Origin: Thalassoglobus sp.
GTDB lineage: Bacteria > Planctomycetota > Planctomycetia > Planctomycetales > Planctomycetaceae
Direction: 5' to 3'
Assembly: GCA_048266185.1 (NCBI GenBank)
Contig: JBLWZY010000001.1
Span: 652,002 to 716,001, forward strand
DNA: 64,000 bases
The position numbers and the translations under genes were made by a program. Positions 26,169 to 29,513 of the stretch are shown piece by piece (the stretch's first letter is position 1; every line of letters begins with the position of its first letter). Below the pieces are notes generated by a model. The model was not told the DNA's origin, made no database searches, and worked only from the letters and a program-made list of their open reading frames with translations.

Positions 26169-27659
26169 CTACTTCGCTGCAACCTCGTTCTCAACCGGTT
26201 CTTTACTCGCAGGTGCGGGATCAACCGTTTGAGATTCCGAGCCAGCTTGAACATCTTCAAACGGGACGCTGTAGATGTAGTTGACAAGGTGCCAGATATC
26301 TTCATCTGTCATTTCTGAATTTGGATCTTCAGGATTTGATCGACGAAGTAACGTCGTCGAGAATGCTGGCATAGGGGTTCCCTTAATTCCAGCATACAAT
26401 CGAGAATACAAATCGATAGGACGTCGACCACCACGATAAATGCCGGTATGCAGGTTTCTTGGTTTCACGGGATGACCCCAAGTGTCGTACAGGCCGAGAC
26501 CAACATTATCCTGACCAGCTTCATCCTTTGAAACTGCTAGTGTCTGTGAGCCATCTCCAAATCCAGCTTCACCATGGCACTGGGCACATTTCAAGCTGTC
26601 TTTCAGGTACAGTTCACGTCCTTTGGCGATGGATTCTTTCGAATATGGAACGCGAGGAGTCAAAGGTCGAACTTCGGCAGACTCCTCCTGTGAGGACTCC
26701 CAGTCATTTGCCAGGCGAGTGACAATCGAATCGACTTCAGCTGGTAATGAATCAGGATCATTTACTGATTCAAGAAATTCGTTTTGAATCTCAACTGCTG
26801 ATTCAGAACCATCTTCAGTTCTATCTGCAATAGCTTGAAGGGAGTACCCATCACCGAGCAAACGAATTAACTGGTATTCGACTTCTCCACGCATCGCTAG
26901 CCACATTACATATTCTGTGATGGCTGTCGATTCTTCTTCGGTAAGAAGCTTAAAGGAAGGCATGTAAGTCCCAGGAACTCCATTTTCAATGACGTTCTTA
27001 AGGTCATGACGACTTGCTTTTTTCGAGCTTTGCGTTGTTGTGAACTTGAAAATCCCTCTACGGTAATCACGAGGTTTTGGGTTCAGGTACGGAGCTGTCG
27101 GCCCCATTCCATCTCCAGTGACACCATGGCAATGCTGACAATGTTCGGCGTACAGCATGCGTCCATTGGCCAGAATTTCACCAGGACCGAGGATTACCGG
27201 TGTTCCTTCATCAGGATTAGAAGCAAGCGGCATCTCAAGAGTCGCTTGATGCTTTTCTTCATTCCAGGTTTTGATCCACGAACTCGGTTGTCCCGCCAGG
27301 TTCCCACCCATCCAAAGGACTTCAGTCCCCTCTGGAATCGCAGTATGCGGATCGGTGAGTTCTAGTGACAATTGACGTCCAGATCCTTCCTGAACTGTCC
27401 CTTGTGCGTAGTGCATCTTCAAGGGAAGTTTATCCCAAGCGACCATTTCGGTCGGTTCACCGAAGTACGTCAGGAGGACCTTGTCCAGATAATCCTGCGC
27501 ATAGGGCGAAAGGGTCTGGTACTCCTCGCGGTTAGAAAACTCAAGTTTTCCACCACATCCGGAGGTCAGACAGATCAACATTAGTGTGCAAATGGTTCTC
27601 ACAGGAAAACCTCGATACTCTTGGAGGTTACTGCGACAATTTTGACGCATTGACTTCAA
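26169..27659 (-). CDS. Diheme cytochrome c lipoprotein
   Basis: Lipobox-like LTSG-C; CQHCH...YMPSF and CAQCH...PMPAF (His/Met ligation). Exact start uncertain. Confidence 0.85.
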   Translation of the reverse strand: MKSMRQNCRSNLQEYRGFPVRTICTLMLICLTSGCGGKLEFSNREEYQTLSPYAQDYLDKVLLTYFGEPTEMVAWDKLPLKMHYAQGTVQEGSGRQLSLELTDPHTAIPEGTEVLWMGGNLAGQPSSWIKTWNEEKHQATLEMPLASNPDEGTPVILGPGEILANGRMLYAEHCQHCHGVTGDGMGPTAPYLNPKPRDYRRGIFKFTTTQSSKKASRHDLKNVIENGVPGTYMPSFKLLTEEESTAITEYVMWLAMRGEVEYQLIRLLGDGYSLQAIADRTEDGSESAVEIQNEFLESVNDPDSLPAEVDSIVTRLANDWESSQEESAEVRPLTPRVPYSKESIAKGRELYLKDSLKCAQCHGEAGFGDGSQTLAVSKDEAGQDNVGLGLYDTWGHPVKPRNLHTGIYRGGRRPIDLYSRLYAGIKGTPMPAFSTTLLRRSNPEDPNSEMTDEDIWHLVNYIYSVPFEDVQAGSESQTVDPAPASKEPVENEVAAK

Positions 27660-28614
27660 ATTTCATTTCAACGGCAGTGTTTTGGGCAGCTTCAACTTTT
27701 ACGGAGCGTTCGACGTATCCGACCGCTTCATGCCACAAAACAAAGGTCCAGGTTCCATCAGGGAGATCGGTGATCTCAAAGTTTCCATTTTCATCTGTAA
27801 CAGCTCCCCAAGGATGGTCCAAAGGAAGGATGTATGCAGTCATGAAGGTGTGGAAGTCACAGCCGGTCAGGGCCGGAGTCCCTTCTACAAATTCGAATGT
27901 GTGTTCTGTACTGCCATTGGCTGTGACAACGTTGTTGTATGAGTTTTGAAACCCTTTAACGTTAACGTTGTGAGCAACCGGATCAGAGTTCTTCAATAAT
28001 ACGGGTTGACCAACACGAACAATCTTAGCGTGCGGGAGGAAGACACAACCTTTTTGGTCGATCTCGACAACTTCATCCTCTTTCGGAGCCGGAATGCCTG
28101 TCTTCGGAGCTCTTTTCATATAGACAAAGACATTCGCAAGTCCACCATCTTTAGAGACGACTGCTTTTTCATTTGGGACAGCCGTTTCAGCACAGATGGC
28201 ATCTTTCGTTTCAGCACCTTTTTCTAATAGTGGCGGCAGGCTCGGAGCAGTCCCTTTCACTGAGACTCTGCCGAAAAATTTCGCTGGACCTGTGTGATTA
28301 GCCGCTGCTTTCGAAGCTGGCGCTTCAGCAGCCACTGGTGTCGCCGCAGGTTTAGCCATTTCTTTCTTTGGAGCAGCTTCAGCAGGTGCGGATTCTTTAG
28401 GAGTCGCAGTAGCTGTCTCTGTGCTGCTCGGTGCAGTTGCCGGCTCACTCGGCGTCGGAGTTTCTTCTTCCTCGACAGCGACTTCACCTACTGAGATGTC
28501 GACTTCTGAGGCAGGTTTAACATTTGTTGATTCACGATCTGCTTTTGGAGCACAACCCGTGACAATCACGAGCGAAAGCAAGATCAAAATCTGATTGTGC
28601 TTGCGATTTAACAT
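27628..28614 (-). CDS. Lipoprotein with cupredoxin-like (amicyanin-type) site and carboxypeptidase-regulatory-like beta domain
   Basis: VTG-C lipobox, Pro/Ala/Glu linker, DQKGC.F.PH, DPVAHNV, CDFHTFM, HPWGAV. Confidence 0.78.
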   Translation of the reverse strand: MLNRKHNQILILLSLVIVTGCAPKADRESTNVKPASEVDISVGEVAVEEEETPTPSEPATAPSSTETATATPKESAPAEAAPKKEMAKPAATPVAAEAPASKAAANHTGPAKFFGRVSVKGTAPSLPPLLEKGAETKDAICAETAVPNEKAVVSKDGGLANVFVYMKRAPKTGIPAPKEDEVVEIDQKGCVFLPHAKIVRVGQPVLLKNSDPVAHNVNVKGFQNSYNNVVTANGSTEHTFEFVEGTPALTGCDFHTFMTAYILPLDHPWGAVTDENGNFEITDLPDGTWTFVLWHEAVGYVERSVKVEAAQNTAVEMKFEVNASKLSQ

Positions 28615-28643
28615 GGTAAGAATCCGCGCCTTAGTTGATGGTT

Positions 28644-29513
28644 CTATTTTGCCAGCTTGTCGGCACTGACTGTGATCTCAATGGGAGTCGCTTCTCCGTT
28701 CGCGGGGACATCAACCGACAATGAGCGTTCAATATAACCAAGTTTTTCATGCCAGATAACAAATTCTAAGTTTGTCGCTGGTGCATTTGGAATTTCAAAT
28801 GTGCCATCCAGGTTTGTGACAGCGGCCCAAGGATGGTCGACAGGCATCACGTACGATGACATCCAGACATGGAAGTCACAGATCACTAATGCCGGTTTAG
28901 ATTCTGCAAATTCAAACTGATAATTCACATTCGCAGCGTTCAAAGGAGTGATCGTCGAATTGAAAGTATTCGCTTGCCCCTTAACGTTCACGTTGTGAGC
29001 AACTGGATCTGAGTTTTTCAACAAGACCGGTTGTCCAACCTGAACAACTTGTGCGTGTGGAATGAAAATACAGCCTTGCTGATCGAAGTCGATCTGCTCA
29101 GTTGGTGGTGCAGGGACATCGACATTCGGGACTCGTTTCAAGTAAATGAAAACGTTCCCAAGTCCACCGTTTTCGCCAACTGCCGATTGATTCGGTACTA
29201 CCATTTCGCTGCAGATCGCATCTTTAGTTGATTCGCCCTGTGCAAGTAACGGTGCAAAACTGGGCAGTGCTCCGTCTACTGAAATTTTTCCGCGCACTGT
29301 TCCGAACTCTGTGATTTTCGGACCAGCAGTTTGGGCCGCTTCTTCTTGTGAATCACCTAGTCCACCTTCAGTCAGCAGTGTCATGTGAACTGGACTGCGA
29401 GCTCCACCACCGACGCCTTCACGACGAACTGAAGGATCGCAACCAGTCATCGTCACGACTGACAATAAAAGGACAGCAAAAAATGTCTGTTGTGTTTGCA
29501 TGCGAATCATCAT
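28644..29513 (-). CDS. Paralogous cupredoxin-like lipoprotein
   Basis: MTG-C lipobox, DQQGC.F.PH, DPVAHNV, CDFHVWM, HPWAAV; DNA similarity to the neighbour is visible (about 28985-29040 vs 27960-28015). Confidence 0.78.
   Translation of the reverse strand: MMIRMQTQQTFFAVLLLSVVTMTGCDPSVRREGVGGGARSPVHMTLLTEGGLGDSQEEAAQTAGPKITEFGTVRGKISVDGALPSFAPLLAQGESTKDAICSEMVVPNQSAVGENGGLGNVFIYLKRVPNVDVPAPPTEQIDFDQQGCIFIPHAQVVQVGQPVLLKNSDPVAHNVNVKGQANTFNSTITPLNAANVNYQFEFAESKPALVICDFHVWMSSYVMPVDHPWAAVTNLDGTFEIPNAPATNLEFVIWHEKLGYIERSLSVDVPANGEATPIEITVSADKLAK

Follow-up and report, generated by a model that had tools for sequence, protein, structure and literature searches.

Which proteins could carry electrons between the bc complex and the terminal oxidase of planctomycetes? 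For Thermogutta terrifontis, the authors of a reconstruction from the genome state that they came across neither a typical cytochrome c nor a plastocyanin gene that could serve between complexes III and IV (PMC5673643). The same question is raised by two tandem lipoprotein genes, paralogs B and A, which are located between bc-complex and oxidase genes in a 64,000-nucleotide stretch of the genome of a marine planctomycete (Planctomycetaceae) near Thalassoglobus polymorphus (the window, i.e., the whole stretch of DNA analyzed; its numbering is used below). All respiratory genes of this string lie on the minus strand. Sequence comparison and structure prediction lend good support to the view that the two genes belong to a genuine family of tethered blue-copper proteins from the respiratory operons of planctomycetes, one that is well conserved and poorly annotated.

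The two proteins share 40% identity (E = 4e-85), and each consists of a lipobox cysteine, a disordered tether and a folded module. Their features are as follows (aa, amino acids; pLDDT, predicted local distance difference test score).

28644–29513, minus strand: paralog B, putative lipoprotein cupredoxin of 289 aa (open reading frame, AlphaFold2)
29439–29513, minus strand: signal peptide and lipobox of paralog B, MMIRMQTQQTFFAVLLLSVVTMTGC, with Cys25 predicted to be lipidated (sequence pattern)
29304–29438, minus strand: disordered tether of paralog B, residues 26–70 (45 aa; pLDDT 49–58)
28992–28997, minus strand: His173-Asn174 of paralog B, predicted N-terminal copper ligand and second-sphere Asn (invariant; aligned with His53-Asn54 of amicyanin)
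28860–28880, minus strand: predicted ligand loop CDFHVWM of paralog B, residues 212–218, with Cys212, His215 and Met218 (alignment)
27628–28614, minus strand: paralog A, putative lipoprotein cupredoxin of 328 aa with a long tether (open reading frame, AlphaFold2, Foldseek)
28552–28614, minus strand: signal peptide and lipobox of paralog A, MLNRKHNQILILLSLVIVTGC, with Cys21 (sequence pattern)
28282–28551, minus strand: tether of paralog A, rich in Ala, Pro, Glu and Thr, residues 22–111 (90 aa; sequence and low pLDDT)
27967–27972, minus strand: His215-Asn216 of paralog A (alignment)
27841–27861, minus strand: predicted ligand loop CDFHTFM of paralog A, residues 252–258, with Cys252, His255 and Met258 (alignment)

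The translations contain all the motifs listed in the preliminary description of this DNA, namely, a lipobox Cys, AHNV, CDFH(TF/VW)M, DAIC and QxGC, at the places given there. In paralog B, the lipobox ends in VVTMTGC (Cys25) and is followed by DAIC at residues 98–101, QQGC at 145–148 and HNV at 173–175; the corresponding elements of paralog A are LVIVTGC (Cys21), DAIC at 138–141, QKGC at 187–190 and HNV at 215–217. The long flexible linker that had been ascribed to one copy corresponds to the 90-aa tether of paralog A as compared with 45 aa in paralog B, both with low pLDDT. The lipoboxes were called with a crude sequence pattern, and the family consensus at the predicted lipidation site is “GC” in an alignment of 41 sequences. 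Both proteins are most likely periplasmic lipoproteins with a lipid-modified Cys.

The putative copper site was analyzed using the alignment of 41 homologues (mean column identity 33%, paralog B numbering). Residues C101, C148, D169, H173, N174, C212, H215 and M218 were invariant, as were the paralog A equivalents H215-N216 and the Cys, His and Met of CDFHTFM; the motifs are thus no product of chance. Among 263 family proteins fetched, the C-x2-H-x2-M loop was present in 248, and 245 combined it with D-x3-H-N. According to the comparison of the family profile with the PDB, amicyanin chains are matched at E = 5e-5 to 1e-3; two Nitrosopumilus blue-copper domains are matched as well. The alignment with amicyanin is ligand to ligand, HNV falling on His53-Asn54 and C-x2-H-x2-M on Cys92, His95 and Met98, so the amicyanin-type ligand set of the same spacing, proposed earlier from the motifs, is recovered by the profile alignment (best E = 5e-5). 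Residue-by-residue alignment to amicyanin, 5fc9 and 9cck, alongside a superposition of low root-mean-square deviation (rmsd), suggests that the four ligands converge on a single site. This site is predicted to be of the amicyanin-like type 1, either blue or green, and to bind copper; on the grounds of sequence and fold, the identity of the two proteins as type 1 copper lipoproteins is regarded as very probable. A further set of near-invariant His and Glu residues is located outside the type 1 site (H153, H227 and W254-H255-E256 in paralog B, with counterparts in paralog A) and may form a second site or a domain interface.

Structure prediction, which had been suggested as a check, gave a confident cupredoxin fold for both paralogs. 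The AlphaFold2 models have a mean pLDDT of 87.7 for paralog B (above 94 at residues 67–289) and 86.3 for paralog A (at least 94 at residues 111–328). The top Foldseek matches of both models in the PDB were all cupredoxins (probability 1.00; template modeling (TM) score on target 0.67–0.81), including amicyanin, Cupredoxin_1, plastocyanin, pseudoazurin and CuA domains, and the best match of paralog A was amicyanin (E = 4e-6). Amicyanin could be superimposed on the models with an rmsd of 2.1–2.9 Å over about 88–92 columns. Solved cupredoxins cover about 90–100 of the ~220 folded residues (TM score on query 0.24–0.27), and for this reason the module as a whole is unseen in any solved structure.

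Analysis of the full proteins in Pfam detected solely a C-terminal CarboxypepD_reg domain, with 34.5 bits against a cut-off of 32.2 in paralog A and a score under the cut-off in paralog B. The match comprises the C-terminal 55–60 residues and profile positions ~24–80 of 88. The Pfam cupredoxin models (PF00127 Copper-bind and PF13473 Cupredoxin_1) did not match the full proteins at E ≤ 1; the excised cupredoxin segment of paralog B reached 14.8 bits with PF00127, under the 21.2-bit cut-off. The NCBIfam amicyanin model TIGR02657 matched paralog B only, at 13.5 bits versus a cut-off of 110.2 (E = 0.072). The predicted order of strands is an N-terminal strand, an extension carrying Cys101, the cupredoxin and a C-terminal sandwich, which suggests a cupredoxin flanked by, or inserted into, a carboxypeptidase-regulatory-like beta-sandwich. 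When the N-terminal strand was joined to the C-terminal sandwich and rescanned in Pfam, the score of paralog B rose from 18.2 to 22.8 bits and the match covered more of the profile; for paralog A, the score rose from 34.5 to 37.0 bits. This splice test weakly backs a nested architecture. Most likely, the rigid module is an amicyanin-like cupredoxin domain joined to a carboxypeptidase-regulatory-like beta-sandwich.

The genomic context of the family was assessed by a pattern scan of species-representative genomes that returned 80 loci, nearly all from Planctomycetaceae. In about 70 of the 80, the genes follow the order Rieske protein, cytochrome b, octahaem cytochrome c, cupredoxin (one or two copies), dihaem cytochrome c, coxB, coxA, ctaA, ctaB, coxC. 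When every cupredoxin copy in all loci fetched was counted (n = 109), 86 copies were linked to bc/aa3 genes, 5 to cbb3 genes and 18 were orphans; the 86 copies have the octahaem cytochrome gene on one side and dihaem cytochrome c–coxBA on the other. The copper ligands are retained in 105 of the 109 copies. The cupredoxin and the dihaem cytochrome are paired in every locus reaching that far, and the same pairing beside cox or bc genes was found in two genomes of other families in the class. At E ≤ 1e-20, a match is present in 143 of 301 sampled genomes of the phylum and in 16 of 16 genomes of the same family. A third-party redox enzyme conserved in the cluster was not found among the related loci.

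The five cbb3-linked loci belong to Fuerstiella and other metagenome-assembled genomes of Planctomycetaceae (L058:9947-18149, also L052, L056, L062 and L071). They encode a cupredoxin, a dihaem cytochrome c, a 217-aa protein without a Pfam match, CcoN, CcoO and a P-type ATPase. The copper ligands of these cupredoxins are intact, and three of the five have a lipobox and a tether. No CcoP-like gene was seen in these loci, and because of this the cupredoxin–dihaem cytochrome pair may stand in for CcoP. Two lines of evidence back the respiratory role assumed in the preliminary description: the strongly conserved synteny with genes of the bc complex and the oxidase and, independently of it, the link to cbb3 genes.

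In the maximum-likelihood tree, the respiratory copies form one clade of 89 sequences (support 100/94) with the orphans outside; the cbb3-linked copies form a nested clade within it (support 100/99). Paralogs B and A each cluster with the genes that occupy the equivalent position in Thalassoglobus neptunius and Planctomicrobium, indicating that the B/A duplication is older than these genera. Tandem pairs of other lineages mix members of different subclades. By the crude pattern, a lipobox is present in 60 of 86 bc/aa3-linked, 3 of 5 cbb3-linked and 2 of 18 orphan copies. At 50% identity, as many as 17,823 representatives are found at E ≤ 1e-3 and 3,874 at E ≤ 1e-30, which makes the family very large. 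The module is also built into giant proteins of planctomycetes, together with BlaR1-M56, thioredoxin, DUF1559, ankyrin, LRR or secretin-type domains (P0121, P0125, P0127, P0148, P0263). In these fused copies, the Cys, the first His and the Met are lost, while PH, DHP and WHE are kept. The loss of the ligands in the fused relatives shows that in the respiratory proteins they are under selection and are not mere baggage of the fold.

A third paralog with intact copper ligands is encoded elsewhere in this genome (G000:C7:259803-260507; L084:9798-10619, minus strand). It has a type I signal peptide without a lipobox and adjoins the permease of an ABC-3 metal transporter, which carries a fused DtxR-type C-terminal domain, and the ATPase of this transporter. 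This neighborhood was not conserved in 11 other genomes, and a metal-transport role based on it was dropped.

As for the names of these proteins, the closest match of paralog B is a 94% identical ortholog that NCBI calls “cupredoxin domain-containing protein”. Its relatives are mostly “hypothetical”, “carboxypeptidase regulatory-like” or “rhamnogalacturonan lyase domain” proteins, with some named “plastocyanin” at the Joint Genome Institute (JGI). The earlier statement that such proteins are usually annotated only as carboxypeptidase-regulatory-like was thus correct in part: Pfam sees that domain alone and many relatives are so named or hypothetical, but the names “cupredoxin” at NCBI and “plastocyanin” at JGI are also in use. 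A literature search found no paper on the combined cupredoxin and carboxypeptidase-regulatory architecture.

Within the window, the pair is part of a gene string that agrees with its earlier placement between the bc complex and the oxidase.

36020–37321, minus strand: Rieske protein, first gene of the string (Pfam and open reading frame)
35170–35943, minus strand: cytochrome b6-like N-terminal half, after the Rieske protein
33741–35105, minus strand: subunit-IV-like C-terminal half; the Rieske, b6-like and IV-like genes together span 33741–37321
29510–33673, minus strand: octahaem cytochrome c of 1387 aa with eight CxxCH motifs and a PDZ domain, membrane-anchored, directly upstream of paralog B
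26169–27659, minus strand: dihaem cytochrome c lipoprotein with two CxxCH motifs and the lipobox LICLTSGC, directly downstream of paralog A
19599–26121, minus strand: aa3-type oxidase genes coxB, coxA, ctaA, ctaB, coxC and coxD (Pfam and open reading frames)
25243–26121, minus strand: coxB, with the CuA motif CAELCGWGHYKM (sequence motif)
23284–25137, minus strand: coxA, part of the aa3-type oxidase genes
17576–19344, minus strand: ABC-2 transporter pair (permease and ATPase), ahead of the Sco1/SenC-DUF420 gene
16317–17612, minus strand: fusion of a Sco1/SenC copper chaperone with a DUF420 membrane domain, closing the oxidase gene string

The Rieske/b6-type complex has the octahaem cytochrome c as its predicted third subunit. 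The stop codon of this cytochrome gene and the start ATG of paralog B overlap as ATGA, and the gap between paralogs B and A is 29 nucleotides. The true start of the dihaem cytochrome gene is probably a GTG ~27 nucleotides past the stop codon of paralog A. A simple sequence scan revealed no terminator-like sites in the gaps of the cupredoxin region; a promoter scan gave counts no higher than shuffled controls and was uninformative. Judging by this layout, the genes appear to be packed as in an operon.

Two further features of the bc-complex proteins were observed. In the octahaem cytochrome c (29510–33673, minus strand), the anchor is N-terminal, a long segment is helical, and the PDZ domain separates haem motifs 5 and 6. 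In the Rieske protein (36020–37321, minus strand), the membrane and Rieske domains are preceded by a long N-terminal region in which Ala, Pro and Lys abound and motifs resembling “STADILAAARAQ” recur.

Taken together, the sequence and model data favor an electron-transfer component acting at the membrane surface between the bc-complex cytochrome and the oxidase, with a probability of roughly 60%. This reading follows from the fact that the genes are repeatedly paired with one for a dihaem cytochrome c ahead of two classes of haem-copper oxidases, and that paralog B is translationally coupled to the octahaem cytochrome. Tethered at the membrane surface, the cupredoxins would sit next to two haem proteins, the octahaem cytochrome c belonging to the Rieske/b6-type complex and the lipoprotein with the dihaem cytochrome c, and would relay electrons one at a time between them and the terminal oxidase. 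The final acceptor would be CuA of the aa3 enzyme here and the cbb3 enzyme in relatives. On its tether, the rigid copper module would be able to reach its partners while remaining in two dimensions. Two specialized roles would fit the differences in tether length and in loop residues (V-W in paralog B, T-F in paralog A). The two old paralogs may thus serve different steps or partners, and the order of electron transfer is likewise proposed.

The description of the pair as membrane-tethered blue-copper proteins of the respiratory chain is well supported by the ligands, the predicted fold, the lipobox with its tether and the synteny. The accompanying idea that they replace cytochrome c is contradicted, because the octahaem cytochrome c and the dihaem cytochrome c lipoprotein flank the pair and co-vary with the cupredoxin genes. 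The cupredoxins would therefore act alongside c-type cytochromes and not in their stead. A more specific version of the electron-transfer reading treats the cupredoxins as stoichiometric subunits of a bc-oxidase supercomplex with alternating copper and haem centers (octahaem cytochrome c, cupredoxin or cupredoxins, dihaem cytochrome c, CuA or cbb3). The paralogs would be placed at different steps, and His153, His227, His255 and Glu256 would form a second functional site or a docking surface specific to the nested architecture. This version is speculative and more probably wrong than right.

Several points weigh against the electron-transfer reading. The haems alone could carry electrons from the octahaem cytochrome through the dihaem cytochrome c to CuA, a haem-only route for which the actinobacterial bcc-aa3 supercomplexes are a precedent, and given such a route the cupredoxin may be dispensable for the main path. 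PCuAC (PF04314) was not found in the genome, which leaves room for a role in copper delivery. In addition, H153, H227, H255 and E256 are still present in the copper-less relatives, for which this reading does not account.

If the proteins were partners or assembly factors of the oxidase and not carriers, they would stabilize the enzyme or, in place of PCuAC, hand copper to Sco, CuA or CuB. The presence of ctaA, ctaB and Sco-DUF420 genes in the same string, the P-type ATPase gene after the cbb3-linked version and the missing PCuAC gene are all in line with this, as is the case of AcoP, which keeps oxidase activity optimal (PMC4059628). Such a role is nevertheless considered unlikely. A buried His-Cys-His-Met set with Asn after the first His is a signature of electron transfer, unlike the Met/His sites of PCuAC and the CxxxC+His of Sco. 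The Sco protein encoded at 16317–17612, the sole one of the genome and a canonical CuA chaperone, is already located in the cluster of the cupredoxins, and a partner or assembly factor accounts poorly for the translational coupling to the octahaem cytochrome and the constant pairing with the dihaem cytochrome. The narrower candidate role of a CuA chaperone was made unlikely as well: by sequence the proteins are neither Sco nor PCuAC (PF02630 Sco1/SenC and PF04314 are absent from the Pfam matches of both), a Sco gene is nearby, and the family is also linked to cbb3 genes although cbb3 oxidases have no CuA.

Electrons might also pass from haem to haem along the main path, with the cupredoxins on a side branch that links in further redox enzymes or donors of the periplasm, or that buffers copper or reactive oxygen close to the complexes; the accessory lipoprotein subunits of the mycobacterial supercomplex offer a comparison. 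Orphan paralogs that keep the ligands and are encoded apart from respiratory genes, one of them in this genome (G000:C7:259803-260507), the size of the family (17,823 representatives at E ≤ 1e-3) and the presence of FtrB, a cupredoxin of an iron-uptake system, among the fold matches would be explained in this way. This appears improbable, since the respiratory copies form a separate clade with their own lipobox and tether and the cluster contains no conserved candidate for the third-party enzyme. An extremely improbable explanation takes the carboxypeptidase-regulatory-like label literally and makes the module a structural beta-sandwich without copper, in which the ligand-like residues are incidental. 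Pfam does recognize CarboxypepD_reg alone, and the copper-less module does serve as a building block in BlaR1-M56, thioredoxin, ankyrin and LRR fusions; however, the four ligands and the Asn do not vary within the respiratory family, it is exactly the fused relatives outside respiration that have lost them, and type 1 copper proteins are matched by both sequence and fold.

The cupredoxin family described here is a concrete and testable candidate for the complex III-to-IV step in planctomycetes. It is kept beside oxidase genes across Planctomycetaceae, extends to other families of the class and is linked to both aa3 and cbb3 genes. Since the names of its members are mostly uninformative, metabolic reconstructions and estimates of copper demand miss it. 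For copper-protein chemistry, it provides a second natural case of the minimal ligand loop of amicyanin, placed in a two-domain scaffold that is new, with natural copper-less relatives at hand for comparison.

Among known systems, the closest in sequence and fold is amicyanin of Paracoccus denitrificans/versutus (PDB 1aac and 1id2; TIGR02657), the best match in the PDB. Both have the common cupredoxin fold and the ligand pattern His-Asn ... Cys-x2-His-x2-Met, the shortest natural ligand loop. The genes of mau/methylamine dehydrogenase that form the context of amicyanin were not found near the pair in the window or in about 70 related loci, and the proteins of the window differ in being tethered lipoproteins with an extra N-terminal extension and a C-terminal beta-sandwich. 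Membership in amicyanin was rejected on the basis of the TIGR02657 score, far under its cut-off, and the absence of mau genes; this is an uncharacterized family distinct from amicyanin. The Pfam names CarboxypepD_reg and CarbopepD_reg_2 (PF13620 and PF13715) fit a minor part of the protein and miss the copper domain.

In genetic context and likely role, the nearest analogue is AcoP from the iron-oxidation chain of Acidithiobacillus ferrooxidans (PMC4059628, PMC5982212, PMC10804444). AcoP is a membrane-associated cupredoxin with a single copper whose interaction partners are a dihaem cytochrome c and the aa3 oxidase; genes of its homologues are located in cytochrome c oxidase gene clusters (PMC4059628, PMC5982212); it was first described as maintaining oxidase activity (PMC4059628). 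The cupredoxin genes of the window are likewise located inside a cox cluster with a dihaem cytochrome c. No AcoP chain was found among the PDB profile matches at E ≤ 1 or among the top 50 fold matches. AcoP differs in its unusually long loop between the second and fourth ligands, its green site and the lack of the carboxypeptidase-regulatory-like sandwich, and it belongs to the iron-oxidation chain of an acidophile, whereas the chain of the window oxidizes quinol.

Membrane-tethered type 1 copper is likewise present in sulfocyanin (SoxE of the Sulfolobus SoxM complex), halocyanin (Natronomonas), auracyanin (Chloroflexus/Roseiflexus) and lipid-modified azurin. Cupredoxins of this group join a quinol-oxidizing complex to a terminal oxidase or a reaction center. 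Auracyanin works with ACIII and links this quinol-oxidizing complex onward (PMC10873879). The proteins of this group belong to other cupredoxin subfamilies, with longer ligand loops and a single domain. In addition, the copper protein largely substitutes for soluble cytochrome c in their systems, whereas the window co-encodes octahaem and dihaem cytochromes c. By analogy, the proteins of the window appear functionally closest to AcoP, sulfocyanin, halocyanin and auracyanin.

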